Assembly (NCBI RefSeq): GCF_029504745.1
Contig: NZ_JAQFIQ010000013.1
Coordinates: 1 to 32,000 of the forward strand
Direction of reading: 5' to 3'
Source: Breznakia sp. PF5-3
GTDB lineage: Bacteria > Bacillota_I > Bacilli_A > Erysipelotrichales > Erysipelotrichaceae
DNA: 32,000 bases
In this document: piece after piece, positions 11,943 through 26,475 of the stretch
Layout of the letters: each line of letters opens with the position of its first letter
Numbering within the stretch: position 1 is the first letter of the stretch
The notes under the pieces: model-generated
Told to the model about the DNA's origin: nothing
The model's database searches: none
The model's input: only the letters and a program-made list of their open reading frames with translations
Position numbers and translations under genes: made by a program

Positions 11943-12094
11943 ATAGTTGATATTATTTTTACATGTATATATAAATGATAGATTATATGTATGATTTTTA
12001 TGGATTCTTTCAACTGGAAAGATAATGACAATTATATTGATTAATGGTATAATTTATATATTATTTTATGAATTTTAATGAGGAGAATATTAGA

Positions 12095-13201
12095 ATGAAA
12101 ATTGCTACATTAAGTTTAAATGTAAATACAGATGATTTGAATTTTGGTGCTGTCATGCATAGTTATTCATTTCAACAAGTATTAATCAAATTGGGTTATA
12201 CAGATACTGAAATAATTAATTATATTCCCCAAAAAGTAGAACATATAAATAGAAAATATCCTTTATTTACTAGCTTTAAAAAATTTACCGTTATTAAGTT
12301 TGGCATGAGTATACTTACTTTTTTCTCTCATGCAAAAAAATATGATAAATTTGAAAAATTTATAAATACTAATATGAAACTTTCATCACAATCATTTACA
12401 CAAGAGCAACTAAATAATGCAGAGTTACCATACGATTGTATTATTTGTGAAAGTGATGTTATATGGAGTCCAGGTTTTTTTAATGGAGGTTTTGATAAAG
12501 CTTTTTTTATGGCATTGGATAGCATGAAAGAATGTAAGAAAATAGCATATTCAGCAAGTTTAGCAAATGGTGATTTTAATGAAAAACAAGATAAAGAATT
12601 TGCGAAGCTATTAGAAAATGTTGATTTCATTTCATGTAGAGAAAAATATGGAGTAGATTTAACAAAAGAACATACAACAAAAGATGTAGCACATGTATTA
12701 GATCCAACCCTATTATTAAAGGAAGCAGATTATACACATTTATTAAAAAAATCATCTATTGACGATAAGTATATTTTAATATATTTCCCTTTAAGCTATA
12801 ACAAAGCATTGGTAAATCTAGCAAAAAAATATGCTAAAAAGCATAATTATAAAACAATTGAGATTTCGAATTATGTTTGGGAGAAATTTTCTCACAAAAC
12901 ATATTGTTCTGCAGGAATAGAAGACTTTTTAACTTTAATAAAAAATGCTGAATGCATTTTCACGAATTCATTACACGCAGTTTGTTTTTCGATTATTTTT
13001 CATCGTCCTTTTTATGGGTTTGCTAGGGCAACAGGTCGTAAAACGGAAGATCTTTTAGAAAGTTTAAATTTAAGTGATCGGTATATTAAAGATAATAATT
13101 TTATTGAAGGCAATGATATTAATTATAATGAAGTTGATAAAATATTAGATGATAGAATTGATTACTCTATGAATTGGCTGAAAAATGCTTTAGCTAAATA
13201 A
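12095..13201 (+). CDS. Polysaccharide pyruvyl transferase family protein
   Basis: SD gaggag precedes ATG 12095. N-terminus MKIATLSLN....NFGAVMHSYSFQQVL and length about 368 aa are typical of the PS_pyruv_trans family. Confidence 0.65.
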   Translation: MKIATLSLNVNTDDLNFGAVMHSYSFQQVLIKLGYTDTEIINYIPQKVEHINRKYPLFTSFKKFTVIKFGMSILTFFSHAKKYDKFEKFINTNMKLSSQSFTQEQLNNAELPYDCIICESDVIWSPGFFNGGFDKAFFMALDSMKECKKIAYSASLANGDFNEKQDKEFAKLLENVDFISCREKYGVDLTKEHTTKDVAHVLDPTLLLKEADYTHLLKKSSIDDKYILIYFPLSYNKALVNLAKKYAKKHNYKTIEISNYVWEKFSHKTYCSAGIEDFLTLIKNAECIFTNSLHAVCFSIIFHRPFYGFARATGRKTEDLLESLNLSDRYIKDNNFIEGNDINYNEVDKILDDRIDYSMNWLKNALAK

Positions 13202-13213
13202 TTAAAGAAAGAG

Positions 13214-14044
13214 ATGATTATGGATAATACAAGTACTTTGAAAAATATTCAAAAAATTGAATTAGAGATAGCTGCACATATTTTTGATTTATGCAGAAAA
13301 CATAAGTTGACGTGTGTCCTTGCAGGAGGGAGTTGTTTGGGTGCAATTCGACACAAAGGGATGATTCCTTGGGATGATGATATTGACTTGGCTATGCCAC
13401 GTAATGACTATGAGCGCTTTATTGAATTATGCGAAAAAGAGTTAAGTTCAAAATATTTTTTCCAACATTTAGATAGTGAAGAGAATTGTGCCTATATTTT
13501 TGGGAAAGTAAGAAAAAATAATACAAAACTTACTGAGGAATATTCGCATAATATTAAAATGCATCAAGGAATTTGGGTTGATATATTTCCTTATGATAAT
13601 ATTTCTGATAGTCATTTACGAAGAAAATTTAACAATATGTGGATTTCATTTTATAAAAATCTTTTGATTGTTAAAGTGGGTTTCGGGATTCCTCGAAATA
13701 GTAGTTTCTTATTTTCTGTTGCTTATTATATTTCAAAAATTATTTCATTGTTTTTTTCGAAAAAATTTTTAAAGAAAAAACTCAGAAAACATATGCTCAA
13801 GTACAATAATCAAAAAACAGAAAAAATTCGCCCTTATGCTGGTGCTTATGGTGAAGCAGAGAATATGTCTAATGATTTATTTGAGAACCCAATAGAGGTG
13901 GATTTTAATGGATATAAGTTTTTAACATTTAAAGAATATGATATGTATTTGACAAAACTATATGGTGATTATATGACACCTCCACCTCCTGAAAAAAGAA
14001 ATGGTGGAAATCATCATATTAAAGAAGTTATTTGTGGGGAATAA
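13214..14044 (+). CDS. licD: LicD-family phosphotransferase (transfers phosphocholine, phosphoribitol or a similar head group onto a glycopolymer)
   Basis: Signature LAGGSCLGAIRHKGMIPWDDDIDLAMPRNDYERF. An alternative start is ATG 13220. Confidence 0.8.
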   Translation: MIMDNTSTLKNIQKIELEIAAHIFDLCRKHKLTCVLAGGSCLGAIRHKGMIPWDDDIDLAMPRNDYERFIELCEKELSSKYFFQHLDSEENCAYIFGKVRKNNTKLTEEYSHNIKMHQGIWVDIFPYDNISDSHLRRKFNNMWISFYKNLLIVKVGFGIPRNSSFLFSVAYYISKIISLFFSKKFLKKKLRKHMLKYNNQKTEKIRPYAGAYGEAENMSNDLFENPIEVDFNGYKFLTFKEYDMYLTKLYGDYMTPPPPEKRNGGNHHIKEVICGE

Positions 14045-14062
14045 GAAGTGTTTCGTATTATT

Positions 14063-14100
14063 AAAAAAGACTATTAAGGCATGTGAATAGTCTTTTTTTG
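14063..14100 (+). terminator. Rho-independent terminator after licD (A-run/T-run flanks, potentially bidirectional)
   Basis: aagactatt (14067-14075) pairs with aatagtctt (14086-14094), then a T run to 14099. Confidence 0.75.
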
Positions 14101-14153
14101 TGACATTATGTATTATATAAAAATGATAATTCATGTTATAATAATTTCATTTA

Positions 14154-15599
14154 ATGGAGATGATTATGGTTATAGAGATTATATTTATATTTATCACTTT
14201 AATATTATTATTTTCTGCTTCTTGGGCTTTGGATTACTTTGGTCTTTCATGCTTTGAGCAGATTGTTTTTCATTTAAAAGTGCCATTAGAAGGAACAAAT
14301 ACGGAGTTTATTTTTGATTGGATAAAGAAATGTGTTAGTAAAGCAGTTGTAAGCACATTGTTTATATGCTTACCGTTACTTAATGAAAATTATAAGAATA
14401 ACTTTTTTGTAATTTCAATGATATTAAGTTTGATATTTTTGTTTTTAGCTGCAAACCGTGTAGGACTCTTTGGGTTTGTGGGGAATCTCTTTAAAGGTAC
14501 TGAGTTATATGAAGAAGAATATATAGATGGCAAGAATATTAAAATAGAATTTCCTAAAAAGAAAAAAAATCTAATATATATCTATGTGGAATCTTTAGAA
14601 AATACCTACACATCAAAAGATAATGGAGGTAATAATAATGATGATTTACTTTACCCATTATCAAAATATGCTACGGACAATATAAATTTTTCCAATACAG
14701 AAACATTAGGTGGAGCTAAAGTTGTATCTGGTACGGGTTGGACAACTGGTGGTATTGTTGCTCAAAGTGGTGGTGTTCCCTTATTAGTACCCTTGAATCA
14801 AAAACGTTTTAGTAAGAAAACAGATTTTTTACCAGGTTTATATGCACTTGGTGATATTCTGGAAAAAGAAGGATATAATCAAGAATATATGATAGGATCA
14901 GATGCAATTTTTGGAGGTCGTGAATTTTATTTTAAAAAGCATGGGAATTATAAGGTTTTTGATTTAAATACAGCTTATAAGGAAAATAAGATTGCAAAAG
15001 ACTATAAAGAATTTTGGGGATATGAAGATGAAAAATTGATATCTTTCGCAAAAGAAGAAATTTTAAATCTTGCCAATGAAAATAAACCTTTTAATTTTAC
15101 TATGCTTACGGTTGATACACATCACCCATATGGCTATGTTTGTAAGAATTGTGAGAGCAAATATCCAGAGCGACTTTCCAATGTCATTGCATGTAATAGT
15201 AAGCAGATTGGTGAATTGGTTGAATGGATAACTAAACAAGAGTTTTATAAGGATACAACACTAATTATTACAGGAGATCATTTGAGCATGGCAGCTGAGT
15301 ATATACATAAGACATATGATAAGACATATGAGAGAACTATTTTTAATACTTTTATGAATAGTTCTATACCTGCTGCTAACACAACACATAGAAAGTTTAC
15401 AAGCTTCGATATGTTTCCTACAACATTAGCTAGTATGGGAGTTCATATTGAAGGAAACCGTTTGGGGTTAGGAACAAATTTATTTTCTAGTGAAAAGACC
15501 CTTATAGAAAAGTATGGATTTGATTTTATTGACCAAGAACTACGTAAGCAATCATTATATTATAAAAGAAATATTTTAAAAAGAGGTATCACTAAATAG
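14154..15599 (+). CDS. LtaS/MdoB-like membrane sulfatase-fold transferase (phosphoglycerol or LTA-synthase family)
   Basis: About three N-terminal TM helices, then a sulfatase-fold ectodomain (YIYVESLE, GTGWTTGGIVAQSGG, TVDTHHPYG, ITGDHL). The start could be ATG 14166. Confidence 0.65.
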   Translation: MEMIMVIEIIFIFITLILLFSASWALDYFGLSCFEQIVFHLKVPLEGTNTEFIFDWIKKCVSKAVVSTLFICLPLLNENYKNNFFVISMILSLIFLFLAANRVGLFGFVGNLFKGTELYEEEYIDGKNIKIEFPKKKKNLIYIYVESLENTYTSKDNGGNNNDDLLYPLSKYATDNINFSNTETLGGAKVVSGTGWTTGGIVAQSGGVPLLVPLNQKRFSKKTDFLPGLYALGDILEKEGYNQEYMIGSDAIFGGREFYFKKHGNYKVFDLNTAYKENKIAKDYKEFWGYEDEKLISFAKEEILNLANENKPFNFTMLTVDTHHPYGYVCKNCESKYPERLSNVIACNSKQIGELVEWITKQEFYKDTTLIITGDHLSMAAEYIHKTYDKTYERTIFNTFMNSSIPAANTTHRKFTSFDMFPTTLASMGVHIEGNRLGLGTNLFSSEKTLIEKYGFDFIDQELRKQSLYYKRNILKRGITK

Positions 15600-16023
15600 T
15601 GATACCTTTACTGTACAAGTCATCAAAAAATTGGAAAGCGATATTTTCTGGTACGCCTTTGGTAGTTAATAGATTTATAATATTTGTATTACTTATTTCC
15701 TCATCTTTAAGTAAGAATAAACAAGCAAACGTATTTGCTTCTCTTTCTAATTTGTTCTTTTTTATACGGATTGAGAAATTGAAATTAATATTTTGATCAT
15801 AATGTAAAATGCGATGACCAAGTTCATGTAAAATTAAAAAATTTTGATAAGAAATATCTAAATCCTTTTTCATAAACAACGTATTCATATTGATGAGCAT
15901 AGCATCTGTATTCATGGGAAGGATATTTTCCTCGAGGATGGAAATGTTATAAAAAGATAATAATTCTTCCAGTGTAAAATGGTGATAATTTTGTAAAGTG
16001 GATTCAATATGTTTTATATTCAT
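15592..16023 (-). CDS. ImmA/IrrE-family zinc metallopeptidase (anti-repressor protease)
   Basis: HEXXH motif in LHELGHRILH. 143 aa. Lies immediately downstream of the XRE repressor with a 2-nt gap, the ImmR/ImmA arrangement. Confidence 0.75.
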   Translation of the reverse strand: MNIKHIESTLQNYHHFTLEELLSFYNISILEENILPMNTDAMLINMNTLFMKKDLDISYQNFLILHELGHRILHYDQNINFNFSIRIKKNKLEREANTFACLFLLKDEEISNTNIINLLTTKGVPENIAFQFFDDLYSKGITI

Positions 16024-16025
16024 TA

Positions 16026-16406
16026 TTAAGTTATTTGCTTAGCAGCTACCTTTAATAAATCTAAAACCGTGTTGGCAAACTTTACAATTTCTTCATCACT
16101 CATTTTATCGATATCATAACCCCCATATGCTGCAATCATAGGTTGTTCAACTAAAAATTTCATAGCATCTTCGGCAGTTGAAAATCTTTGATCACTATCT
16201 CCAGTGAGTTCGTTCATACTCACATTTAAAATGTTTGCGAGTTTACTCATACGGTCAACACGAGGATAACTTTGAGCATTTACCCAACTTGAAATAGTAG
16301 ATAACGGTAAATCCATTTCCCGGGCAATTATTGTCTGCGAAATTTTTTTCTTTTCCATGATTCTTTTCAAATTTTTGACAAAAATATCTCTTGCATTCTT
16401 TTCCAT
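16026..16406 (-). CDS. XRE-family HTH repressor (cI/ImmR-like)
   Basis: HTH_3 segment KKISQTIIAREMDLPLSTISSWVNAQSYPRVDRMSKLANILNVSMNELTG. Divergent from the tail operon across an operator-rich intergenic region. Confidence 0.85.
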   Translation of the reverse strand: MEKNARDIFVKNLKRIMEKKKISQTIIAREMDLPLSTISSWVNAQSYPRVDRMSKLANILNVSMNELTGDSDQRFSTAEDAMKFLVEQPMIAAYGGYDIDKMSDEEIVKFANTVLDLLKVAAKQIT

Positions 16407-16423
16407 AAAAACTCCTTTCTTAA

Positions 16424-16510
16424 ATTATACGATATAATCGTAATAAATCAAGCTTGATATAAAAATATTACAGTTTAGTCGTTGACACTACGATTAAACT
16501 GTAATAAAAT
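16424..16510. promoter_or_regulatory. Divergent promoter/operator region of the genetic switch
   Basis: Rightward promoter: -35 ttgaca 16482-16487, 17-nt spacer, -10 taaaat 16505-16510. It sits inside a 16-bp inverted repeat, attacagtttagtcgt (16467-16482) / acgattaaactgtaat (16490-16505), with one mismatch. Leftward promoter on the minus strand: -35 ttgatt (16446-16451), -10 tataat (16424-16429), with the palindrome tacgat-ata-atcgta (16428-16442) in its spacer. Confidence 0.6.
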
Positions 16511-16560
16511 TTGATTGTAAGAAATTATATACGAATAAAATGTATGGAAGAAGGAGGAAA

Positions 16561-16977
16561 ATGAAACAGCAAGAAAAAATAGATCAATTTATAAGAGATT
16601 TAAAAAGTGTAAACTTCTACACAAAGAGCATTATAGAAATGAACTTGGAACTAGAAGATATTGCCAATCAATTACAAGGAGTTTCCTCTATTCAATTTAA
16701 TCAAGTTTATACTTCTAAGCAAAAAGGTCCATATAAATCTAAAGTGGTGAGTCTTATGATGTTGGAAGAGCAAATGATAAAGATTAAGGAAAAGTATGAG
16801 GATAGATTAGTAGAAATAGAGAATAAATTCGAAATGATTGAAGATTTAATCGTTAAAGACATGCTTGTGGATATCCATATTTTAGGGATTCGTCATGAAG
16901 CAGTAGCCATTAAGTATAACTACAACCGACAACACATTTATCGCAAAATCAACAGTGAGTTAAAAAAGATTTTATGA
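16561..16977 (+). CDS. Putative late-gene activator with a sigma-70 region-4-like C-terminal HTH (DUF1492/ArpU/RinA class)
   Basis: SD aaggagg precedes ATG 16561, so the track start at 16540 is rejected. C-terminus DMLVDIHILGIRHEAVAIKYNYNRQHIYRKINSELKKIL resembles region-4 HTHs of small phage activators. It is the first gene after the switch. Confidence 0.5.
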   Translation: MKQQEKIDQFIRDLKSVNFYTKSIIEMNLELEDIANQLQGVSSIQFNQVYTSKQKGPYKSKVVSLMMLEEQMIKIKEKYEDRLVEIENKFEMIEDLIVKDMLVDIHILGIRHEAVAIKYNYNRQHIYRKINSELKKIL

Positions 16978-17034
16978 CATGCGACACTGTACGCTTAAAA
17001 AGATGTTACTATGATATTGTGATAATTGCGTAGG

Positions 17035-17068
17035 TGTTGTTTAGATAAAAAACAACACTTTTATTTTA
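17035..17068 (+). terminator. Rho-independent terminator between the activator gene and the structural genes
   Basis: gtgttgttt (17035-17043) pairs with aaacaacac (17051-17059), 7-nt loop, then ttttatttt. Confidence 0.7.
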
Positions 17069-17082
17069 GAAAAGGAGCAAAC

Positions 17083-17265
17083 ATGAAAAACGTAATGAAA
17101 GTAAAATTAGTAGAATGTTATAAAGTAGAAAGTAAAGAATATCCAGAATTGTTTGCGATTGGAACTACGCAGACAGAAGCAATTGAGCGTTTAGAAGTCT
17201 TGATATATGAACATAGACAAATGCTAAGGATTGCAAAAGAAGTACAAAAACTAGCTTATCAATAA
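17083..17265 (+). CDS. Small hypothetical protein (60 aa), with weak resemblance to HicB/UPF0150-type folds
   Basis: SD aaaggag precedes ATG 17083. The segment YPELFAIGTTQTEAIERLEVLI loosely recalls HicB-like proteins. Function unknown. Confidence 0.5.
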   Translation: MKNVMKVKLVECYKVESKEYPELFAIGTTQTEAIERLEVLIYEHRQMLRIAKEVQKLAYQ

Positions 17266-17351
17266 TAGTTATTGGTCCAGGCTTATGACCTAAAAAGAAT
17301 TGCACGTTTGGTGATGGCTACCACCTAAAAAGTCTAAAACGAGAGGTTAGT

Positions 17352-17798
17352 ATGAAAACGAAAAACTTACAACGAATAGGTCTTACAAAAAAACAAATTG
17401 ATTTTGTAATGGCAGAAAATGGAAAAGATGTTAATCATGTGAAAGAACAAATGGTTTTGCGAGAAAAACAAATGAATGAGATGCAAAAAGAAAATGACCA
17501 TTTATATAAGGAACTTACTAAATTGAATCAAATAGTAGAGAGATATAACGGAATTGATGTAAAGGAGTTGTTAGAAACTCAAAAAAGATATGATAAAGAA
17601 CTGTTAGAATTGAAAAAATCGAATGCTATTGAGCGATTATTTGGCAATCTTCCTTTTGCTAGTAAACTGGCAAAGAAACAAGCAATACAAGAATTTGAAA
17701 AGCAAAACTTTATATTTAAGGATGATGTTTTTATTGGGGTTGACAGCTTTTTTGAAAATTTAATAAAAAATGATGCAAATGCATTTTATAAACGATGA
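17352..17798 (+). CDS. Phage GP20-like (scaffold-type) coiled-coil protein
   Basis: N-terminus LQRIGLTKKQIDFVMAENGKDVNHVKEQ plus a long coiled coil resembles the 'phage minor structural protein GP20'/scaffold family. SD gagagg. Confidence 0.5.
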   Translation: MKTKNLQRIGLTKKQIDFVMAENGKDVNHVKEQMVLREKQMNEMQKENDHLYKELTKLNQIVERYNGIDVKELLETQKRYDKELLELKKSNAIERLFGNLPFASKLAKKQAIQEFEKQNFIFKDDVFIGVDSFFENLIKNDANAFYKR

Positions 17799-17815
17799 AA
17801 GGATGAATATAAATT

Positions 17816-18439
17816 ATGGCAATTGAAAATAAAAGACCGCAGATTAAAGAGACAGTAGGAGCACAATATGTTTGTTTTGCTCTTGATAATGAAAATGGAG
17901 TATTTAATGGAGAATATGAAGCAAAAGTAGAAAAGACAGAGGTTGTGAAGAGTGTTAGTGTTACAGAAAATGCGACAAGTACAAAAGTAAGAGCTAGTGG
18001 AAAAGATTATGAAGTAGTATCTACTCTAGCTTCAACGGATATCAGTGTTGAAGTAGTTGCATTCCCTGCTGAAACATTAGCAAAGATGCGTGGAGATGTA
18101 ATTGACACTACAGGACTTATCATGAGTGGTGGCAATAGCGAACGTCCATACTTTGCTTATGGTAAGGTTGTTGAGCTTAAGAACGGATTCTATCGTTATG
18201 AATGGTATCCAAAATGTAAGCTTACAGCAAATACTGATGAAGTAACAACAAGTGATGTAGAGTTTGCAGAACAAAATGATACGTTTACGATTTCGGCTAT
18301 GGCATTTAATGATAATGGAGATAATCGTACAAAAGTTGAAACAGAGTTTAAATTGCCTGAAGGATTAACGGAAGAAAAGTTCTTCAGCAAACCGATTTTA
18401 TCACCAGAGGATTTAGCAGAAGTTATCCAAGGTACGTAA
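17816..18439 (+). CDS. Major tail protein (phi13-type, siphovirus non-contractile tail tube)
   Basis: 207 aa. N-terminal pattern TVGAQYVCFALDNENGVF...Y.. and its position directly before the chaperone/TMP genes fit phi13-family major tail proteins. Confidence 0.65.
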   Translation: MAIENKRPQIKETVGAQYVCFALDNENGVFNGEYEAKVEKTEVVKSVSVTENATSTKVRASGKDYEVVSTLASTDISVEVVAFPAETLAKMRGDVIDTTGLIMSGGNSERPYFAYGKVVELKNGFYRYEWYPKCKLTANTDEVTTSDVEFAEQNDTFTISAMAFNDNGDNRTKVETEFKLPEGLTEEKFFSKPILSPEDLAEVIQGT

Positions 18440-18440
18440 T

Positions 18441-18761
18441 ATGAGTGATATAACGTTAACAAATGGTGAAAATTTAGAAATTAGTATTAATTGGTTAACA
18501 TTAAAGCTTTTAAGTGATTACGGACTAGAAAAACTAAATAAAAAAATGAAAAGTGAAAATAATCAAATGGAGGTTGCTTCAATATTAATTTATTCAATTT
18601 TACGCTCGAATGGGAAAAAAATTTCACATGAAGAAGCACTGTCGTTAATTAGTGTTGATGATGATTCAATATTTAAAATTTTTAATATTTTTAGTGATAA
18701 GATGAAGGCATTCAAAAAAAAACAGGAAGGGAGAATAGAATTACAAAAAAATATGAAATAA
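18441..18761 (+). CDS. Tail assembly chaperone (gpG analogue)
   Basis: 106-aa ORF between the major tail and tape measure genes. It contains a slippery A9 run near its 3' end. Confidence 0.7.
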   Translation: MSDITLTNGENLEISINWLTLKLLSDYGLEKLNKKMKSENNQMEVASILIYSILRSNGKKISHEEALSLISVDDDSIFKIFNIFSDKMKAFKKKQEGRIELQKNMK

Positions 18762-18892
18762 AATGGGCAGAAATTTTATATTCTGCTCTTTTAATTGGAT
18801 TAAGTGAAGAAGAATTTTGGAAAATGGATCCGATAATTTTTAATGAAATGCTAATATATCACTTTGAATTAGAAAGGAGAAAATATGGATAA
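18441..18892 (+). CDS. Tail assembly chaperone frameshift product (gpGT analogue) made by a -1 slip in A9 (18714-18722)
   Basis: The -1 frame is open from 18701 to a stop at 18890-18892 and encodes ...TGRENRITKKYEIKWAEILYSALLIGLSEEEFWKMDPIIFNEMLIYHFELERRKYG. It ends 8 nt inside the TMP gene. Confidence 0.6.
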
Positions 18893-19943
18893 TAATTTAA
18901 ATATGAATGGAATTTTAGATGCAACAGAGATAATAGCAGACTCTTTTTCAGAGCTAATAGGTACAATGATTTCTGGATTTGAGAAAGTAATGGAATTGAC
19001 TAATAATATTATAAATCTATTTCAATCATTTATAGATTTGATTTTTGATGGCGGTACTATTATTGAAGCATTTCGTAATTTAGTTGCAGAAGCTTGGCAG
19101 GTTATTCAAGAAGCATTTTTATCTGGTTGGGATAGTGTGCTAAAACCTGTTTTTGAAGGACTTACAACAGCATTTTTAAATGTCATTGAATTAGGAATTG
19201 TTCCACTCTCAAACAGTTGGCAAGAGTTTATTGAAACAGCAATAGGACAAATATTTCTTTTATGGAATTCTATTCAACAAACAATTGGAAATATACTTTC
19301 AGTAATACAACCAGTAATTAGTTTTATAACGTCGATTCCATCATTAATACAAGAAACAATTAATACAGTTTTTTCTGAATTAAATACATTTACAGGTGAT
19401 GTATTTAAAAAAGTTTTATCTTTACTTCAAATAGTTACTGGCATAATAGCGTCTATGATTAAAGGAATTGTTACATATGTATCTGAATTGATAAATCAGG
19501 TATTTAGAGGTTTGGAGAATTTATTACCTAATATTATAATTGGTATTTTTAATGCAGTTATTAGAATAATAAATTCGATGATAAGAAAGCTTAATAAAAC
19601 TTTCAAATTTGAACTTCCAGATTGGATACCATTTATAGGTGGAAAAAAATATGGATTAAATTTAGATGAGCTAGAAGAAGTTAAAAGATTAGCTAAAGGT
19701 GGAGACTTAATGAATGGAATAGCAATGGTTGGAGAAGCAGGACCTGAGCTGTTATTGCAAAATGGAACAAGAACAACGGTAGCACCACTTACACGTGGAG
19801 GAGGCGCAGATCCAGTAGATATCATTGACTATAACAAAATGGCACAGATTTTCATGCATTCCGTAATGGGAATGATGGATGGTGTTAGTGTAAAAATGGA
19901 TCGTAGAGAATTTGGAAAACTAGTGAGTGAGGTGAATAAATGA
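18885..19943 (+). CDS. Tape measure protein, unusually short (352 aa)
   Basis: Position after G/GT. Helical, Ile/Leu-rich body. C-terminal motif MVGEAGPELLLQNGTRTTVAPLTRGGG is typical of TMP C-termini. SD aaaggag. Confidence 0.7.
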   Translation: MDNNLNMNGILDATEIIADSFSELIGTMISGFEKVMELTNNIINLFQSFIDLIFDGGTIIEAFRNLVAEAWQVIQEAFLSGWDSVLKPVFEGLTTAFLNVIELGIVPLSNSWQEFIETAIGQIFLLWNSIQQTIGNILSVIQPVISFITSIPSLIQETINTVFSELNTFTGDVFKKVLSLLQIVTGIIASMIKGIVTYVSELINQVFRGLENLLPNIIIGIFNAVIRIINSMIRKLNKTFKFELPDWIPFIGGKKYGLNLDELEEVKRLAKGGDLMNGIAMVGEAGPELLLQNGTRTTVAPLTRGGGADPVDIIDYNKMAQIFMHSVMGMMDGVSVKMDRREFGKLVSEVNK

Positions 19944-20773
19944 TGAAATATAAAATATCTTATGAAGGATTAGGTGGAGTGATTGATTTTTCAAAAGCTC
20001 CTTTTATTTATGCTGACCACAATCTTTTTGATTATGAGTTTTCATATGATAGTACCAATATGCCTTCTCAAAATAAAACAATACTAAATCAGATATACTC
20101 ACTAGGAAAAGTAAAAACTATATCTTTACAAGTTATAGGAACTAAAAAAGCAGAAATATTAAATGATTTAGAAACAAAATTAAACTATGATATTGAAGCA
20201 AAACAGCCTGGGAAATTGTATGTTAATGATGAGTATATAAACTGTTATTTAGTAGCTTCTTCAAAAAAGGAGTGGAATCAATATGCAGCAATGGAATATA
20301 TTACATTGTCATTGTTTTGTGAAAGTCCTAAATGGATTACAGAAAAAACATATGATTTCTCAATATATGAAAAAAATTCAATTGATGGAGGATTTCATTT
20401 TCCTTTGAGTTTTCCAGTTTCATTCAAATATTCATGGAAGAATATGGACATTTTAAATAATCACTATGCTCCAGTAAAGTGTAAGCTGTATTTTTATGGA
20501 CCTATTAAAGATCCGAAGGTAAGAATAGGTGAAAACTTATATGCTATGAATGGTGAGTTACTTGATAGTGAACGTTATATTATTGATCAAAATGATAAAA
20601 CGATTGTGAAGATTACTGCTGCTGGAGAAATAGTGAACTGTTTTGATGAAAGAGATAAGAGCAGCTCTATATTTTTACCAATTCAAATTGGTGAAAATAA
20701 AGTTGACTACGATGGAACGTTCTCTTTTTCAATTTGCCTATATACAGAAAGGAATGAGCCTAGATGGATATAG
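19940..20773 (+). CDS. Distal tail protein (Dit / phage tail family protein)
   Basis: 277 aa. ATGA overlap with the TMP stop. Canonical position after the TMP. Confidence 0.55.
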   Translation: MMKYKISYEGLGGVIDFSKAPFIYADHNLFDYEFSYDSTNMPSQNKTILNQIYSLGKVKTISLQVIGTKKAEILNDLETKLNYDIEAKQPGKLYVNDEYINCYLVASSKKEWNQYAAMEYITLSLFCESPKWITEKTYDFSIYEKNSIDGGFHFPLSFPVSFKYSWKNMDILNNHYAPVKCKLYFYGPIKDPKVRIGENLYAMNGELLDSERYIIDQNDKTIVKITAAGEIVNCFDERDKSSSIFLPIQIGENKVDYDGTFSFSICLYTERNEPRWI

Positions 20774-21801
20774 TACATGCAAAAGTAGTTAAAGAAGATG
20801 ATTTAAGATTTAAAGAATGCGGGATCATAAAAAACTACAGTAAGGCTGAATTTTCACTGCATAAAGAATTGGATATGAATAAAAATGATTTTGAAATTCA
20901 GATGAGTCAAAGTGCATGGTTGAGTGCACCAATTGTATGTGGAGATTGGGTATATATTGCAGAGAGTGAGTGGGGAGGAAGGGTAGAAAAGATAACTCAT
21001 ACAGAAGAAATGATAAAAGTATCAGGTGTAAACTTTCGCTATCTTTTAAATCGAGACGTTTTACTTCCTCCATATAATCAAACAACGAAGAAACGCGAGA
21101 AATTATTAAATGTTAATGGATATATAGAAGATTTGATAACACAGATAAAAGATTATTCATTGTCACAAGAATGTTTAGGACTTTGTATGATAGATGATAC
21201 AGGCGAGAATATATTAGTAGAAGGAGAAATCGGATATTTAACATATATGGAAGCATTAGAAAAACTAATTGAAAATGAAGATATTTATATTAGTGTTCGA
21301 CATAATAGTGTTAATGATAAATTAATGATTTCAATAAAAGAGCTTGGAGTGTATGAAGATACAATTAATAAAGACTATAATATCGAAATTGATTCTTCAA
21401 TAGATGAAAGTGAGAAAGTAGATCTCATTATTGGAAATAGCACAAGTGACGAGGGGAATTATCAAGTTTTTATGTATCGAGATGAAACGGGTGCGATTAC
21501 AGAATTGGATTTAAATGAAACACACATAGATACGAATACAATCATTAAGCAAATCTTTGTTGATGAAAAAGTAAATTCTCTTGATGAACTAAAGAAAAAA
21601 GTGCTGGAAACTTTTAGTAAACAGAGTTTAAAGAAAACAATAGAATTGTTTTTAAAAACAGAGATAGTAAATTTTAATATTGGTGATGTAATTTCTGGTA
21701 TTGATGAAATAACCACACTGGAAATCAAAACAAGGATTATAGAAAAGAAGTTAGTAATAAATGAAAAAGGCCATAGTATTGAATATAAGGTAGGTGATTA
21801 G
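20764..21801 (+). CDS. Tail tip protein (Sipho_Gp37-like / Tal position)
   Basis: 345 aa, overlapping Dit by 10 nt. The segment SEWGGRVEKITHTEEMIKVSGVNFRYLLNRDVLLP resembles the siphovirus Gp37-like family. Confidence 0.5.
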   Translation: MDIVHAKVVKEDDLRFKECGIIKNYSKAEFSLHKELDMNKNDFEIQMSQSAWLSAPIVCGDWVYIAESEWGGRVEKITHTEEMIKVSGVNFRYLLNRDVLLPPYNQTTKKREKLLNVNGYIEDLITQIKDYSLSQECLGLCMIDDTGENILVEGEIGYLTYMEALEKLIENEDIYISVRHNSVNDKLMISIKELGVYEDTINKDYNIEIDSSIDESEKVDLIIGNSTSDEGNYQVFMYRDETGAITELDLNETHIDTNTIIKQIFVDEKVNSLDELKKKVLETFSKQSLKKTIELFLKTEIVNFNIGDVISGIDEITTLEIKTRIIEKKLVINEKGHSIEYKVGD

Positions 21802-22641
21802 ATGGCACAAAAAGGAATTATTAAAAATACAACAGATAATGAATCATATATATCAGCTAGTGATTGGGCATATATGCAAGATTCATTAATAGGACAATCT
21901 GGGGTAATGGATTATAAAGAAAGATTAGAAGTAGTAAAAATTAACGATAATACAGTTAGGATTAAAAGTGGAGTATATTTTTTGAATGGAAAAGCAATTG
22001 TTGTCGATAATTATGAAGATATCACAATTGATAGTGGCTCGCTTGGAGTAAAACGATATGATTATATTATTGCTGAGTATGTCAAAGATGGAGAATCTGA
22101 AGGTAATGATTTTTTAGGGTTTAGAGTATTGAAAGGAATCCCATCAGCAGATATACCTCAAAAACCCGAGCTTACAAATAATGATGTAGTGGAACAAGAA
22201 ATATTATGTTTAATTTATATTGATGAGATTATACTTAGTATTCAAGAAAAGACAGAAAAAGGGATAATTCAATTAAGCCAATTGTATTCAAAAAATGAAA
22301 TAGATGATATGAGGTCAAAAAAAGTATTATTGACGAAACAATCTGTTTCAGCAAATACAAGTATTACTTTAAATGATAGTATTGAAAAATATGATTTTAT
22401 TCTTGTAGAAGTTCAAGGTGATAATTATGGCATTGGCTCTCTTTTAATCAGTGTAAGTGATATTGTTTATTCAAATTCAACATCTACACATCAATATGAA
22501 GCAGTGGCGTTTCAGAAGGCGGCGGTGTATGCAGCAGTACAATTTAGGTTTACAAATGCTACGACATTGACTACAACAGGACATGTTGTTGCAGCATGGT
22601 CGAAAGCTTGGTTTAGAAGAGCTTATGGTATTAGAATATAG
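21802..22641 (+). CDS. Hypothetical tail protein, candidate receptor-binding protein
   Basis: 279-aa ORF that starts directly after the upstream stop (TAG-ATG). It is the last structural gene before the holin. No recognisable motif, so the call rests on position only. Confidence 0.4.
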   Translation: MAQKGIIKNTTDNESYISASDWAYMQDSLIGQSGVMDYKERLEVVKINDNTVRIKSGVYFLNGKAIVVDNYEDITIDSGSLGVKRYDYIIAEYVKDGESEGNDFLGFRVLKGIPSADIPQKPELTNNDVVEQEILCLIYIDEIILSIQEKTEKGIIQLSQLYSKNEIDDMRSKKVLLTKQSVSANTSITLNDSIEKYDFILVEVQGDNYGIGSLLISVSDIVYSNSTSTHQYEAVAFQKAAVYAAVQFRFTNATTLTTTGHVVAAWSKAWFRRAYGIRI

Positions 22642-22646
22642 TATTT

Positions 22647-22880
22647 ATGAAAAACTTATTTAGAAAAGAATGGTGGATGTTGGCATGTGTAAGAGCATGT
22701 AAAACAATAGCTCAAACAGCAATAGGGATAATCGGGACAAATATCCTCATAACAGATGTTAATTGGATTATTGTCTTGTCATCATCACTTTTATCAGGGT
22801 TAATTTCACTTCTTACAAGCATTCAAGGATTGCCTGAATTGGAAAATGCTACCCATTTAGGTGAAGAAGGAGATGATTAG
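22647..22880 (+). CDS. Holin (two TM helices, LL-H/phiLC3-like)
   Basis: 77 aa. Motif RACKTIAQTAIGII, two hydrophobic helices and an acidic C-terminus EEGDD. Lies immediately upstream of the lysin. Confidence 0.7.
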   Translation: MKNLFRKEWWMLACVRACKTIAQTAIGIIGTNILITDVNWIIVLSSSLLSGLISLLTSIQGLPELENATHLGEEGDD

Positions 22881-23675
22881 TTGAAAAAAGGACAGACGAG
22901 TGTTCGTAATGGTATAGAAGATATTTTATTTCCAATGGAAATATGCAATATTACACAAGGTGATAATGAAGGAACACATAAAGGAACTTATGCTGTTGAT
23001 TTAGCTGGAAAAGACAGCGGAAGAGATTATGCCTATTTTCCCTTTAGTGCAAGAAGTGTAGCATTAGATAGTGCTAAAAATGGAAATGCAGTGATATGGG
23101 AAAGCTTACATAAAGTACGTTTTGCAGATGGAACGATTGACTATTGTTGTATGATGGTAATTCATGATAATGACCCAACTGGTTTTTCAATAGGGTCTTC
23201 CTATAAGCAAGGTGTTCAAATGGCACAAGAAGGAACCGCAGGAATCGCTAGTGGAAACCATTTGCATGTTGAAGTAGCCAAAGGAAAATACCAAAGAGGA
23301 AATGCAGGGATGTATGAGAAGAACAAATATGGAATTTATCATTTAAAGAATAATATGCCAATTGAAAAAGTATGTTTTATGGACAATACAAAGATTATTA
23401 GAGGTATTGCTGATTGGAAATATTTAAAAGATGTAGATGATGCTATTTCAAAAAAGTTGTATTTACCAAAAGAAGCAACAGGATGGTATGTATACCCTTT
23501 ACATAAACGTCCTGTAATTGGTAACCAAATCGGTTCATTAAATCCCTCAAAATATGGAGGGCTGAGTTATCAGATTTTAGCTACACCAATGAAAGATGTT
23601 GCAACAATTGAAACAAAAGAGTATGGAAAAGTAAATATTTATGTTGCTACCAATACAGGAGCAATTATAAAGTAG
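22881..23675 (+). CDS. Endolysin, LAS/M23-like metallopeptidase N-domain plus a C-terminal putative wall-binding domain
   Basis: TTG start 8 nt after SD aaggag. THKGTYAVD and GNHLHVEV resemble the H..D / HxH metal ligands of M23/LAS peptidases. The C-terminal ~90 aa are unassigned. Confidence 0.55.
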   Translation: MKKGQTSVRNGIEDILFPMEICNITQGDNEGTHKGTYAVDLAGKDSGRDYAYFPFSARSVALDSAKNGNAVIWESLHKVRFADGTIDYCCMMVIHDNDPTGFSIGSSYKQGVQMAQEGTAGIASGNHLHVEVAKGKYQRGNAGMYEKNKYGIYHLKNNMPIEKVCFMDNTKIIRGIADWKYLKDVDDAISKKLYLPKEATGWYVYPLHKRPVIGNQIGSLNPSKYGGLSYQILATPMKDVATIETKEYGKVNIYVATNTGAIIK

Positions 23676-23681
23676 ATAGGA

Positions 23682-23711
23682 GACGGTGGTATAAGCTACC
23701 GTCTTTTTTTA
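23682..23711 (+). terminator. Rho-independent terminator closing the tail/lysis operon
   Basis: gacggt (23682-23687) pairs with accgtc (23698-23703), then T7 (23704-23710). Confidence 0.75.
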
Positions 23712-23767: not shown

Positions 23768-24826
23768 ATGAGATTATTTACAGTAGGTCCAGTGGAAATG
23801 TTTGAGCGAACATTAGAAGTTCGTAATAAACAAATCCCTTATTTTCGATGCCAAGAGTTTTCGGATGTAATGTTGGAGATTGAAGAGCGATTAAAAATAT
23901 TATTAAAAACCGATATTGATAGCAAATGTGCAATTATTACAGGTTCTGGTAGTGCTGCTATGGAAGCTGTTGTATCAAATAGCTTAGATGAAAGTGATCA
24001 TGTTTTAGTCATTGATGGTGGTAGCTTTGGAGCAAGGTTTGTCCAACTTTGTGAAATATATAAAATTCCTCATGATGTTGTTAAATTGAAATATGGTGAA
24101 ATTTTAAGTGAAGAACATCTAAAGGCTTATGAAGCAAATGAATATACAGCTATGTTAGTGAATGTTCATGAAACAAGCACAGGACAACTATATGATTTGA
24201 AAATGCTCAGTGAATTTTGTGAGAAGAAAAAAATGAAATTGATTGTTGATGCCATTTCAAGTTTCTTAAGTGATGAATATAAAATGGATGAAATGAAAAT
24301 TGATTGTACGATTATTAGTTCTCATAAAGCATTAGCACTAGCACCTGGTTTGAGTATGGTGATGATGAATGCATCTTTTTATGAAGAAAAGGTAAAAAAT
24401 AAACCAGTTAAGAATCTTTACTTGAATTTAAATGAGCATGTAAAGAATATGGAACGAGGGCAAACCCCAAACACTCCAGCAGTGGGTATTTGTTATGAAA
24501 TGCTAGATATGTTGCGTCATATACAAGAAAAAGGAATTCAAAATATTATTCGTGAGACAAGTGCAAGAGCGACTAAGTTTCGATCAAAAATCAAAGAAAT
24601 TGGTCTTGAGATACCAAACTATCCATTAAGTAATACATTAACACCAGTATATTTTAAAGATGGTAATGCATTTGAAATATATGAATATTTAAAAAATAAT
24701 TATGATATTTATGTTACACCTAGTGGAGGAGCGTTAAAAGATAAACTTCTTCGTGTAGGTCATATAGGGCATATGAAGGATGAATATTATGATGATTTAA
24801 TAATGAAAATGAGAGAGGTCTTATAA
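23768..24826 (+). CDS. Class-V PLP aminotransferase (Ser/Ala-glyoxylate/AEP:pyruvate aminotransferase family)
   Basis: N-terminus FTVGPVEM....IPYFRCQEFSDVMLEIE...ITGSGSAAMEAV and SSHKAL (PLP lysine) fit COG0075-type enzymes. A possible promoter has ttgtat at 23721 and tataat at 23743. Confidence 0.65.
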   Translation: MRLFTVGPVEMFERTLEVRNKQIPYFRCQEFSDVMLEIEERLKILLKTDIDSKCAIITGSGSAAMEAVVSNSLDESDHVLVIDGGSFGARFVQLCEIYKIPHDVVKLKYGEILSEEHLKAYEANEYTAMLVNVHETSTGQLYDLKMLSEFCEKKKMKLIVDAISSFLSDEYKMDEMKIDCTIISSHKALALAPGLSMVMMNASFYEEKVKNKPVKNLYLNLNEHVKNMERGQTPNTPAVGICYEMLDMLRHIQEKGIQNIIRETSARATKFRSKIKEIGLEIPNYPLSNTLTPVYFKDGNAFEIYEYLKNNYDIYVTPSGGALKDKLLRVGHIGHMKDEYYDDLIMKMREVL

Positions 24827-25521
24827 TGAAAGCAATTCTTATGGCTGCAGGAATGGGAACAAGAATTTCATCAGAAACCAATAAACCGAAGAGTTTATTA
24901 CCCCTTAAAAATGAAAGTTTGATTATGCATACGGTTAAGCTACTACAAAAAAATAATATCGATGTGTATATTATCTTAGGATATAAAGGATATACACTTC
25001 GTGAAGAATTAAAAGATATGAATATTACCTTTTTTGAAAATCCTTTTTATGAAGTTACAAATAGTATTGCATCATTATGGTTTGCTCGAGATTTATTAGA
25101 TGGTGAAGATATTCTACTAGCAAATGCAGATGTTTTTTATACACAAGAAATTTTGGATGAATTGGTGAAACAACAAGATGAAGTAACGATGCTTGCTGAT
25201 TCAAGTCGAATCAAAGAAGGTGATTATTTCTTTAAATGTGAAGGTAATAGATTAATAGATTATGGAAAAGAATTAAAGGAAAAAGATCGTAGTTGTGAAT
25301 ATGTTGGTATTGCTAAGATAAGTAAAACATTTTTACCAACATTTAAAAAACAATTGGAAGAGCTTGTGACTACAGGACAATATAATTTTTGGTGGGAAAA
25401 TACCTTGTATAGTATGAAAGACGAAGTTGATATTATCGTGAAAGATATCAATGGATATTTTTGGGGAGAAGTAGATACGAAAGAAGATTATCGTCGTATT
25501 TTAGATTATATTAATAGTTAA
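24826..25521 (+). CDS. LicC-like nucleotidyl (cytidylyl) transferase
   Basis: N-terminus MKAILMAAGMGTRIS....KPKSLLPL is the NTP-transferase signature. 231 aa. The start overlaps the upstream stop (ATAATG). Confidence 0.65.
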   Translation: MKAILMAAGMGTRISSETNKPKSLLPLKNESLIMHTVKLLQKNNIDVYIILGYKGYTLREELKDMNITFFENPFYEVTNSIASLWFARDLLDGEDILLANADVFYTQEILDELVKQQDEVTMLADSSRIKEGDYFFKCEGNRLIDYGKELKEKDRSCEYVGIAKISKTFLPTFKKQLEELVTTGQYNFWWENTLYSMKDEVDIIVKDINGYFWGEVDTKEDYRRILDYINS

Positions 25522-25536
25522 AAAGGGAGGACATGT

Positions 25537-26475
25537 ATGAGATTGAAAAATAGTTTTATAAAAATATTTATCATGTCTCTATGCAATGTCCTTTTTTTAA
25601 TGAATATAGGTTTTATATCTGCTGAAGAAGAGGATGAGGATGTTTGTGGTTTTATCGATGTTTGGTACAAAGAGAGCCGTGTGATTACACATGCACTTGG
25701 TGGCATTGATGGAAAAACTTATACAAATTCAATTGAGGCTTTAGAATATAATTATGAAAATGGAAAACGTTATTTTGAAGCTGATTTCCTAATGACCTCA
25801 GATGGAGGTATTGTATTAAATCATAAATGGGATACGCAAAGGAATTTAGTAGATTATCCAAATGGCTATATACCTAGTAAAGAAGAATTTAAATCCAACT
25901 TGGTACATTATAAGTATTCGCCTACAACAATTATAGAATTGCTAGATTTTATGGATGCACATCCAGATGTGCGAATTGCTACAGATATTAAATATGATGA
26001 TATAACTCAAGTAGAGCAAATCATTGAAAAAATTGTCTTTGTAGCGAAAGATAGAAAGTATGAAGATGTTTTAGATCAATTTATTATTCAGTTTTATTCA
26101 GAAGATAATTATTTTGAATTAAAAAAATTGTATCCGTTTAAAGATTGGATATATGCACTCTATGCAGAAAAAAACATGGATTATAAAAGAGTGGTTGGAT
26201 TTTGTAAAGAACAAGACATTCATGCTGTTCTAATGTCCTATAAATGGGTTGAAGATGAACACACATTGGATATATTTAATGAACATGATATAAAGGTTTA
26301 TGTTTATACTTTGAACAAATTAGAAGATATTTATACTATGTTAGATTTTGGTGCTTATGGCATTTATAGTGATTATGTCACAAATCGAGATTTGTATTTA
26401 AGAGAAATTTATACTTTAGAAGAAATTGCGAAAGTAAATATGGAGATTGCTATAAAATGGTTGATAAATCCTTGA
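25537..26475 (+). CDS. Secreted glycerophosphodiester phosphodiesterase (GDPD) family protein
   Basis: Signal peptide. HALGGIDGKTYTNSIEALEYNYENGKRYFEADF resembles the GDPD H-R/A-G ... E-x-D active-site region. Confidence 0.55.
   Translation: MRLKNSFIKIFIMSLCNVLFLMNIGFISAEEEDEDVCGFIDVWYKESRVITHALGGIDGKTYTNSIEALEYNYENGKRYFEADFLMTSDGGIVLNHKWDTQRNLVDYPNGYIPSKEEFKSNLVHYKYSPTTIIELLDFMDAHPDVRIATDIKYDDITQVEQIIEKIVFVAKDRKYEDVLDQFIIQFYSEDNYFELKKLYPFKDWIYALYAEKNMDYKRVVGFCKEQDIHAVLMSYKWVEDEHTLDIFNEHDIKVYVYTLNKLEDIYTMLDFGAYGIYSDYVTNRDLYLREIYTLEEIAKVNMEIAIKWLINP

Follow-up and report, generated by a model that had tools for sequence, protein, structure and literature searches.

We analyzed a window of 32,000 nucleotides from Breznakia sp. 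PF5-3 (contig NZ_JAQFIQ010000013.1; "the window" means this whole stretch) and found that a cluster of phage tail genes at positions 15592-23711 is probably a domesticated, chromosomally fixed F-type tailocin of Breznakia, whose tail, late-regulation, and lysis modules descend from an HK97-type siphophage lineage. Comparison with related loci supports the tailocin reading well, and the gene content predicts that the cluster would produce particles and kill. Judged by its genes, the locus most likely represents an independently derived lineage of F-type tailocin, a kind of element that is itself already known. Its peculiarities are its compactness, a halved and polymorphic tape measure protein (TMP), an exchangeable cassette of receptor-binding head and holin, a location among wall-glycan genes, and the retention of a head-scaffold homologue together with the motif GP20-b.

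A compact cluster with a full siphovirus-type tail set

The window is low-GC (~30%) chromosomal DNA of a Breznakia strain (Erysipelotrichaceae; class Erysipelotrichia), an insect-gut bacterium. Its tube and hub proteins are identical to proteins from Breznakia sp. isolates, and over 20 kb it is 99.95-100% identical to two NCBI contigs, one from GCA_029504775.1 and one from GCA_029504715.1. The tail cluster comprises 13 genes in 8.1 kb, with a coding fraction of ~94%. An initial interpretation made without database searches (the sequence-only reading) had already named its genes, and profile searches backed each of those calls at its position. Host cell-wall genes were also correctly placed on both flanks: the cluster lies between a sulfatase/LtaS-like gene and a class-V aminotransferase gene, and the genes on either side (10122-15599 and 23768-26475) are cell-wall glycopolymer genes.

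Profile matches revealed a full, sheath-free tail set of siphovirus type, consisting of tube, chaperone(s), TMP, distal tail protein (Dit), hub/Tal, and a candidate receptor-binding protein (RBP). No cluster open reading frame (ORF) matched sheath or baseplate-wedge families in these scans. The cluster has its own switch and lysis cassette, made up of an XRE/ImmA pair, a divergent promoter/operator region, a late-activator homologue, a holin, an M23-type endolysin, and flanking terminators. Strong hairpin-type terminators stand at both cluster ends, and a third hairpin follows the activator gene. The features are as follows.

15592-16023, minus strand: ImmA/IrrE-type Zn metalloprotease, 143 aa, candidate anti-repressor protease (PF06114, E 6e-10; phrog_87, E 4e-18)
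16026-16406, minus strand: XRE/CI-type helix-turn-helix (HTH) repressor, 126 aa (PF01381, E 8e-11; phrog_8/phrog_4 repressor families)
16407-16539: predicted divergent promoter/operator region (promoter scan, 11/12 match; inverted repeats I1 and I6; direct repeat D2)
16561-16977, plus strand: phage-derived late-gene activator, 138 aa (NCBI annotation; homologue in phage L003; weak phrog_36)
17032-17060, plus strand: terminator-like hairpin between activator and late genes (hairpin scan)
17083-17265, plus strand: small ORF, 60 aa, with a good ribosome-binding site
17274-17336, plus strand: GP20-b candidate cis-regulatory RNA motif, Rfam RF03003 (40.5 bits against a gathering score of 36.2)
17352-17798, plus strand: head-scaffold homologue (Phage_GP20/PF06810), 148 aa (PF06810, E 2e-8, 34.8 bits against a cut-off of 35)
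17816-18439, plus strand: major tail tube protein (TTP), phi13 family, 207 aa (phrog_88, E 1e-26; TIGR01603)
18441-18761, plus strand, with T extension to 18892: tail assembly chaperone G, 106 aa, plus -1 frameshift product G-T (weak phrog_4888)
18885-19943, plus strand: TMP, 352 aa (many TMP PHROGs, to E 1e-14)
19940-20773, plus strand: Dit, 277 aa (phrog_33, E 6e-10)
20764-21801, plus strand: Gp37-like baseplate hub/Tal, 345 aa (PF14594, E 4e-6; phrog_538, E 1e-15)
21802-22641, plus strand: RBP candidate, 279 aa (position, modularity)
22647-22880, plus strand: holin, r1t type, 77 aa (PF16945, E 8e-13; hydrophobic segments)
22881-23675, plus strand: endolysin, 264 aa, with N-terminal M23/LAS-type endopeptidase domain (phi29 gp13 C-terminal domain 3csq, E 2e-15; phrog_9066)
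23678-23707, plus strand: intrinsic terminator closing the operon (13-bp stem and T-run)

No tRNA or att-like direct repeats were found at the cluster borders, and PADLOC defense models returned nothing beyond generic matches to the protease/HTH pair. Searches against GenBank phages gave no match for the cluster by megablast, nor for the hub and RBP by tblastn.

The cluster has no head genes apart from a truncated scaffold homologue

The sequence-only reading held that the cluster has no ORFs for head or packaging functions. Two related phages supplied TerL, portal, ClpP, capsid, and connector sequences as tblastn queries, and none of these matched the window or two other Breznakia clusters (L007 and L011, described below). 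As a positive control, the same search recovered TerL, portal, ClpP, capsid, and connectors in every phage relative. Scans of every ORF against Pfam, PHROG, and NCBIfam likewise detected no integration, replication, or packaging genes among the cluster ORFs. The capsid and packaging genes by which a defective head-containing prophage or gene transfer agent (GTA) of the PBSX-like kind would be recognized were found neither in the cluster nor in the window. The claim consequently holds by profile scans and tblastn, with the amendment that one truncated head-scaffold homologue is present.

This homologue, at 17352-17798, is among the unassigned ORFs (17083-17798) in which capsid or terminase genes might have been hidden; no capsid or terminase homologue was found there. 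Described earlier only as a GP20-like protein, it does match PF06810 and is a true head-scaffold homologue, C-terminally truncated and preceded by GP20-b, and the one head-derived gene in the cluster. Alignment with the 204-aa scaffold P0130 showed that it lacks ~55 C-terminal residues of full-length scaffolds. The gene for P0130 belongs to an SPP1-like head module, where it is flanked by the portal/minor-capsid genes on one side and the capsid gene on the other. Its AlphaFold2 (AF2) model is helical (pLDDT 84), and Foldseek matched it to GP20-type phage minor structural proteins only.

No terminator-like ORF was detected in any Breznakia cluster, and the cluster of B. pachnodae (L011) has no gene at all at the scaffold position. 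We considered the GP20-like protein as the missing terminator or cap and rejected it, as its helical model and exclusively scaffold-type matches do not indicate a TTP fold. The monocin terminator has the tube-protein fold (PMC11830787).

The GP20-b motif ends 15 nt 5' of the PF06810 gene. It also occurs in L007 (920-982; 33.4 bits) and before the genuine scaffold gene of L017 (6281-6344; 39.6 bits), and it is 100% identical in strain L108. It constitutes the non-coding block between activator and late genes that is conserved among the aligned loci, and between the window and L007 this block is better conserved than the adjacent ORFs. In the window copy the first hairpin is poorly paired and two ACCTAAAAAG repeats lie 35 nt apart, so the element could bind DNA or protein rather than act as an RNA structure. 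The small ORF before it has a counterpart at the same position in L007 (50 aa, 41% identical) and an identical one (100%) in L108, and it matched no family in Pfam, NCBIfam, or other profile scans. Conceivably, though we consider it doubtful, the truncated scaffold homologue with its GP20-b leader has been exapted, either to interfere in a dominant-negative way with the capsid assembly of phages that are co-induced or infect the cell, or to boost expression of the tube gene.

One alternative is that the cluster supplies the tails of a split particle, to be joined to capsids encoded elsewhere, whether by a defective phage resident in the same cell, by a satellite that forms capsids, or by a dispersed system resembling a GTA, with help from the scaffold homologue. 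Such an arrangement would suit the presence of the scaffold homologue and conserved GP20-b under purifying selection beside the tube gene. The tail terminator and head-joining protein are not in the cluster and could be encoded elsewhere, the head-gene search having covered the window and the cluster loci. However, no connector, terminator, portal, or capsid gene lies within the 32 kb, and the scaffold homologue is missing the C-terminal residues of full-length scaffolds. The B. pachnodae cluster does without the homologue altogether, which implies that it is inessential to the tail-only design. Moreover, the TMP is halved, unlike those of related phages that have head genes, and the cluster possesses its own lysis cassette and switch, as known tailocins do. 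We consider a split particle improbable.

The cluster derives from HK97-type siphophages

The phage relatives of the cluster are HK97-type siphophages of Erysipelotrichaceae and relatives (the metagenomic loci L003, L004, L008, L009, L087, and L088 and, as the nearest isolate, Erysipelothrix phage SE-1), with tube proteins 39-67% identical to those of Breznakia. They have the same chaperone frameshift site, a homologous TMP C-terminus, and a homologous late activator, and the Dit, hub, and RBP anchor of the cluster are of the type found in phages L008 and L009. Genes for TerS, TerL, portal, ClpP, and capsid, together with four connector genes, are present in the phages and missing from the Breznakia clusters. 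Their TMPs are mostly ~700-1070 aa, whereas those of Breznakia are halved.

As a background set, we used the 70 homologous loci outside Breznakia, drawn from genomes, metagenomes, and assemblies, whose sequence extends 1 kb or more 5' of the tube gene. Connector genes lie directly 5' of the tube gene in 70/70, and capsid, protease, and portal genes appear in every locus that reaches ~4.5 kb or more upstream. The loci of the two closest non-Breznakia tube proteins (67% and 63% identical) likewise have phage connector context. The tape-measure ORFs of the set are mostly 716-1073 aa. Hence, the tail-only context is specific to the Breznakia lineage and not general to the tube family. A metagenome scan with Breznakia-type tube proteins returned phage homologues only, at no more than 60% identity, and no further tail-only clusters. 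Three complete-looking metagenome loci with head genes (L029, L079, and L070) have an apparently short first TMP ORF (337, 349, and 222 aa, respectively), for which gene splitting, a frameshift, or faulty assembly might account.

The 352-aa TMP of the window is colinear with the C-terminal ~340 aa of phage TMPs of ~800-980 aa, and the short Breznakia TMPs overall correspond to the C-terminal 340-430 aa. They lack the conserved phage N-terminus MADDLKKVGLVFKADG and retain hydrophobic segments. As a rule of thumb, tails measure ~1.5 Å per tape-measure residue. Using this ratio and the calibration provided by monocin (622 aa = 22 rings = 103 nm), we predicted tail lengths of ~55 nm for the 352-aa TMP, ~70 nm for a 437-aa TMP, and ~120-150 nm for the ancestral phages.

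Relative to the phages, the Breznakia cluster has kept the switch, late activator, tail, and lysis genes and has lost the head/connector block, half of the TMP, and the integration and replication genes. These several separate deletions argue for reduction under selection rather than one accident.

The tail-only cluster is conserved among Breznakia

We identified four independent versions of the tail-only cluster.

Window: PF5-3-like strain; sulfatase/aminotransferase site; reference
L108: conspecific strain, contig of Breznakia sp. OttesenSCG-928-G09; same site as the window; two replaced blocks
L007: Logan assembly SRR31245148, another species; same site; differs in TMP length, RBP head, and holin
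L011: B. pachnodae DSM 16784; different site; differs in Dit, Tal, fiber, and lysis set

The L007 cluster is situated upstream of genes for an aminotransferase and an NTP-transferase, infC, rpmI, rplT, and marR. Its DNA is 67-76% identical to the window within the cluster and 74-78% in the flanks. Gene order is as in the window, including the small ORF and the scaffold homologue, and the TMP is 437 aa. Protein identities are 91% for the tube, 75% for the lysin, 58% for Dit, and 48% for the hub, compared with 87% for accC, 90% for infC, and 77% for the aminotransferase among flanking housekeeping proteins. The L011 cluster contains an ImmA/XRE pair, a 3D-domain gene, a weakly Sigma70_r4-like activator, the tube (87%), a chaperone, and a 437-aa TMP. 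Its Dit and Tal are of the type found in phages L003 and L004, and neither the scaffold homologue nor the small ORF precedes its tube gene. The 3D-domain gene (8956-9225, plus strand) is small, of a cell-wall-binding or lytic type, and located between the switch and the activator.

We estimated selection by the Nei-Gojobori method, with pS of ~0.6-0.7 (saturated) against L007 and L011. Values of dN/dS were as follows.

Tube: 0.05-0.09 (three-way)
Lysin: 0.04
Dit: 0.13
Chaperone: 0.08-0.22
Scaffold homologue: 0.20 (against L007)
Hub: 0.28
Tape measure: 0.16-0.57

For the tube protein of L007, pN/pS was 0.067/0.645. With pN far below pS, the direction of selection read from these alignments is unambiguously purifying. 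All ORFs and the programmed frameshift are intact across the Breznakia clusters. The sequence-only reading had proposed that the same tail-only cluster at the same site with dN/dS < 1 would support domestication, and this is what L108 and L007 display. We also looked for a full prophage at the same site in relatives and for broken orthologues, and found neither.

These comparisons bear on whether the locus is a functionless cryptic prophage remnant, left by deletions and with erosion yet to come. Its phage ancestry is clear, the truncated scaffold gene and 5'-truncated TMP resemble deletion scars, and it has no terminator gene. Its presence also appears patchy, a close tube protein having been found in only one GTDB species representative. 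Yet in each of four independent lineages 13/13 ORFs remain open and the frameshift site is preserved. Tube proteins agree at 84-91% between species despite synonymous saturation, and the chromosomal site is conserved. Gene junctions are tight, with translational coupling, and all four that had been singled out are as described: ATGA at TMP/Dit, a 10-nt overlap at Dit/hub, TAG-ATG at hub/RBP, and TAG-TTG at holin/lysin. Between strains, the regulatory region shows no difference (100% identity), and the changes seen elsewhere are whole-cassette swaps with open frames rather than decay. A remnant is therefore very unlikely, and the conserved site, the intact frames, and pN far below pS support the original proposal of a killing particle rather than a decaying prophage.

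It is more improbable still that regulated autolysis by the switch, holin, and endolysin (releasing, for example, DNA, vesicles, or cytoplasmic goods) is the selected function with the tail genes as passengers, since the lysin is among the best conserved genes and a lysis cassette and switch occur in all variants, but the tube is even more conserved than the lysin, Dit, hub, and chaperone are also under purifying selection, and the holin, central to autolysis, is the gene swapped along with the RBP head.

A lysogeny-type switch and a phage-type late activator

The lysogeny-type switch proposed from the sequence is present, with an XRE protein (PF01381), an ImmA protein (PF06114), and divergent promoters associated with inverted repeats. 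ImmA is 36% identical to the equivalent protein of the B. pachnodae cluster. The rightward promoter (TTGACA-17-TAAAAT, 16482-16510) is near-consensus and located within a 17-bp inverted repeat (16466-16482 / 16490-16506), while the leftward promoter (TTGATT-16-TATAAT, 16451-16424) overlies the palindrome TACGATATAATCGTA (16428-16442). The whole region (16407-16539), which presumably functions as promoter and operator, is 100% identical between the window and strain L108. No LexA (Cheo) box was found near the switch; two matches with one mismatch occur elsewhere, fewer than expected by chance.

The ORF of the activator is open from 16540, and its most likely start is 16561, which is preceded by a GGAGG ribosome-binding site. 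Late activators usually sit just upstream of phage HNH/terminase genes. The activator is 33% identical (E 6e-14) to the product of the gene just 5' of HNH/TerS in the complete phage L003, which identifies it as a phage-type late activator by the place that its homologue occupies. Sequence and profile searches of the PDB with the activator returned no significant match. It had been called sigma-like, and although a phage-type late activator is indeed present, a sigma-like nature is weakly supported (phrog_36, E 3e-4; Sigma70_r4, E 1.5e-3 in the B. pachnodae counterpart). The hairpin at 17032-17060 probably separates early from late transcription. Aligning three loci between activator and late genes revealed no clear shared motif for a common late promoter.

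Properties of the tail and lysis genes

The tube protein is encoded by a single gene, with no second copy in the cluster, and is 84-99.5% identical across the four Breznakia-type clusters. Its best GenBank phage match (58%) is a human-fecal "Bacteriophage sp." record, and its best match to an isolated phage is to Erysipelothrix phage SE-1 (47%). The chaperone frameshift signal had been reported as intact, which our analysis confirmed. The gene for chaperone G contains a slippery run C-AAA-AAA-AAA-C (A9; 18714-18722). From 18701 onward the -1 frame meets no stop until 18890-18892, where it overlaps the TMP start. Both the run and the T-domain WAEILYSALLIGLSEE.FW.MDP are kept in L007, L011, and the complete phage L003. 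This conservation implies that the -1 frame is coding and that the G/G-T pair is intact.

Homologues of Dit come after the TMP in the complete phages L008 and L009. The hub had only 7 relatives in a word-indexed search, and all relatives found in an alignment scan of IMG/VR were at most 31% identical. Endolysin identity to L007 (75%) accompanies a dN/dS of ~0.04, and holins of other families replace the r1t type in L007 and L108.

The RBP candidate has two modules, namely a conserved N-terminal anchor (residues ~1-160) and an exchangeable C-terminal head (~160-279). An exhaustive search returned 1,431 cluster-representative proteins, nearly all of which match only residues 1-130/160 and do so at their own N-terminus. 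These anchor-matching proteins range from 110 to 996 aa and have the N-terminal match whatever their length. A separate set of small proteins matches residues 160-279 only. Counterparts in L108, L007, L089, L090, L008, and L009 mostly share just the anchor, with few pairs extending further, at ~35% identity. Specifically, the L108 counterpart is 78% identical over residues 1-170 and then unrelated, and the L007 protein has its N-terminal 140 aa in common with the window, followed by a Gp10_C head.

Strains differ by whole cassettes beside variable wall-glycan genes

Outside two blocks, the DNA of L108 is 90-100% identical to that of the window. Identity reaches 100% across the switch, activator, small ORF, and GP20-b region and is 92-100% for the rest. 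In block 1 (18454-19680), chaperone G/T and the N-terminal ~265 aa of the TMP are replaced in L108; the chaperones are 67% identical, and the TMP is 352 aa in the window versus 437 aa in L108. In block 2 (22176-22895), the C-terminal ~150 aa of the RBP candidate and the holin are replaced, with an r1t-type holin in the window and Phage_holin_1 in L108. RBP heads differ among the window, L108, L007, L089, and L090, whereas the N-terminal anchors are common. Such a concentration of variation in the RBP head, the holin, and the tail-length determinant is what diversifying selection on a weapon would be expected to produce.

The wall-glycan genes beside the cluster also differ between these two strains. 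In the window (10122-15599) they encode an epimerase, an IspD-like protein, a pyruvyl-transferase, and LicD, while in L108 (1-2106) the neighbors are a GH25/ChW protein and a GT11 glycosyltransferase; the strains are otherwise 94-99% identical. In addition, L108 has an extra 843-aa CHAP/ChW protein (12273-14804) between the lysin and the aminotransferase. With two strains compared, this co-difference of RBP head and tail length with wall-glycan genes is only suggestive. Taken further, the locus might be a linked weapon-and-receptor "supergene" in which specificity and self-resistance are co-inherited, tail length is selected and polymorphic, and the scaffold homologue is perhaps exapted, although we view this extension as doubtful. 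Swapping of RBP-head cassettes beside variable wall-glycan genes offers a test of co-evolution between specificity and self-resistance.

Two contigs from one sample (L089 and L090; Logan SRR31913104) contain Dit, hub, RBP, holin, and lysin genes and end before the upstream genes. Their lysins are 68-71% identical to that of the window. The contigs are ~80% identical to each other in DNA except in the C-terminal region of the RBP (L089 2174-2735), and they may represent co-existing specificity variants.

Comparison with known tailocins

Experimentally characterized F-type tailocins are few: F-pyocins, monocin, rhizoviticin, and the more recently described efagin and Clostridium histolyticum particle. 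The monocin of Listeria has a switch of repressor/metalloprotease type. Full-text literature searches returned no paper linking Breznakia or Erysipelotrichia with tailocins, so far as the terms searched extend. The layout of the Breznakia locus had been likened to those of monocin and F-pyocin. Its architecture does match, although no sequence homology to monocin proteins was detectable. Sequence (phmmer) and profile (hmmsearch) searches of the PDB, including the monocin chains, gave no relevant match for the tube, scaffold-like, Dit, hub, and RBP proteins, and the lysin was the only cluster protein with a significant match among those searched.

Like the Breznakia locus, monocin (Listeria monocytogenes ftb) is chromosomal and comprises regulators, tube, two chaperones, TMP, Dit, hub, RBP, holin, and lysin; it has no head genes, a Gram-positive host, and wall-glycopolymer receptors (PMC11830787). 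Monocin has 18 genes, a 622-aa TMP (22 rings, 103 nm), the terminator FtbF, and a three-protein side-fiber set, and its family is marked by a TP901-1-like baseplate and FtbN/O/P side fibers (PMC11830787). In contrast, 13 genes fill the 8.1 kb of the Breznakia locus, its TMP is 352 aa long, a terminator gene is lacking, and one protein of 279 aa is the sole RBP candidate. By homology it does not belong to the monocin (ftb) family, and it has only one gene at the RBP position.

The F-type pyocin of Pseudomonas aeruginosa is likewise a non-contractile, tail-only system with G/GT-type chaperones and TMP-centered assembly (PMC13455828; bioRxiv 10.64898/2026.02.24.707460). Its main cluster also has no terminator gene; the terminator AlpD is encoded elsewhere, and without it particle length is uncontrolled and killing is retained (PMC13455828; bioRxiv 10.64898/2026.02.24.707460). 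The F-pyocin differs in its lambda-like ancestry, Gram-negative host, 18 genes, and central fiber with side fibers (PMC13455828), whereas the Breznakia locus descends from a Gram-positive phage lineage with a phi13-type tube and HK97-type organization. The F-pyocin also shares its regulation and lysis with R-pyocins, whereas in Breznakia both functions are encoded within the locus.

Efagin of Enterococcus faecalis (PMC12713668) and the C. histolyticum tailocin (bioRxiv 10.64898/2026.06.17.733002) are independently derived, Gram-positive, tail-only systems with a monocin-like layout. Efagin occupies 14.6 kb with 18 genes, has a ~160-nm tail, and is core to its species. A single protein determines its specificity through a C-terminal domain, in correspondence with variable wall-polysaccharide operons; the receptor locus is unlinked (PMC12713668). 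The C. histolyticum particles have been observed by electron microscopy and mass spectrometry, and their locus has a duplicated tube gene and an annotated terminator (bioRxiv 10.64898/2026.06.17.733002). Compared by description, the Breznakia locus differs in a predicted tail about one third the length of efagin's, a single tube gene, and a position inside a variable wall-glycopolymer cluster. When genomes were scanned by a pattern-based method with the tube protein, neither Hathewaya nor Enterococcus yielded a matching locus.

The locus adds an independently domesticated F-type tailocin lineage in Erysipelotrichia and the insect gut, for neither of which did we find one reported. At 13 genes and 8.1 kb, it is more compact than the 18-gene clusters of monocin, F-pyocin, and efagin, and would offer a natural minimal system for engineering. 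The authors of the efagin study ask why long tails are selected (PMC12713668). The 352- and 437-aa TMP alleles of conspecific strains, each with its matching chaperone, form a natural experiment bearing on that question.

Proposed working and points that weigh against it

We propose the following working, in which the steps on repressor, protease, and late activation are drawn from knowledge of the families. The XRE repressor would hold the rightward promoter closed through the palindromic operator until a stress signal activates the ImmA-type protease, upon which the repressor would be removed. The early transcript would then yield the phage-type late activator, which would switch on the late genes beyond the hairpin at 17032-17060. 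A Dit hexamer, a hub trimer, and the RBP would assemble on the C-terminus of the 352-aa TMP, aided by the G and G-T chaperones, and the tube protein would polymerize to a length fixed by the shortened TMP (~55 nm). With no head and no head-joining proteins, the particle could not carry DNA. Holin and M23-type endolysin would lyse the producer cell, and the freed particles would bind the wall glycopolymer of related strains via the exchangeable RBP head. Killing might follow from insertion of the TMP or hub, depolarizing the membrane; we know of no resolved killing mechanism for F-type tailocins.

Several points weigh against a tailocin. Neither particles nor induction nor killing has been observed in this organism. 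The absence of head genes applies to the cluster and the 32-kb window, so head genes might lie elsewhere in the genome. The scaffold homologue and its GP20-b leader are kept under purifying selection, with no obvious need for them in a pure tail weapon. No sequence homology to any experimentally proven tailocin was found in the PDB sequence and profile searches. The RBP call comes from position and modularity, and the single-sequence AF2 model of this protein has a pLDDT of 35. Synonymous sites are saturated against L007 and L011, making the dN/dS values approximate. Finally, the cluster has no tail terminator gene, and tube length is uncontrolled in lambda and F-pyocin lacking theirs. This last point is not disqualifying, because the F-pyocin terminator lies outside its cluster and is dispensable for killing.

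Neighboring genes

The ImmA gene converges with the sulfatase-like gene, and at their stop codons the two overlap by 8 nt (15584-15607). They have a hairpin in common that could terminate both. Further upstream, the window encodes two very large secreted or wall-associated proteins of 1177 and 1667 aa (680-4213 and 4853-9856, plus strand). The 1667-aa protein has glucosaminidase and GH25 muramidase domains as well as GBS_Bsp-like repeats, which are encoded by 7.9 tandem copies of a 297-nt unit (array 6498-8844). Downstream of the cluster, rplT (ribosomal protein L20; 27423-28013, plus strand) encodes a K/A-rich, histone-H1-like C-terminal extension of ~75 aa that contains a 48-nt tandem repeat at 27893-27994. 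The length of its product differs by strain, with 196 aa in the window, 242 aa in L001 (19608-20336), and 212 aa in L007 (10722-11360).

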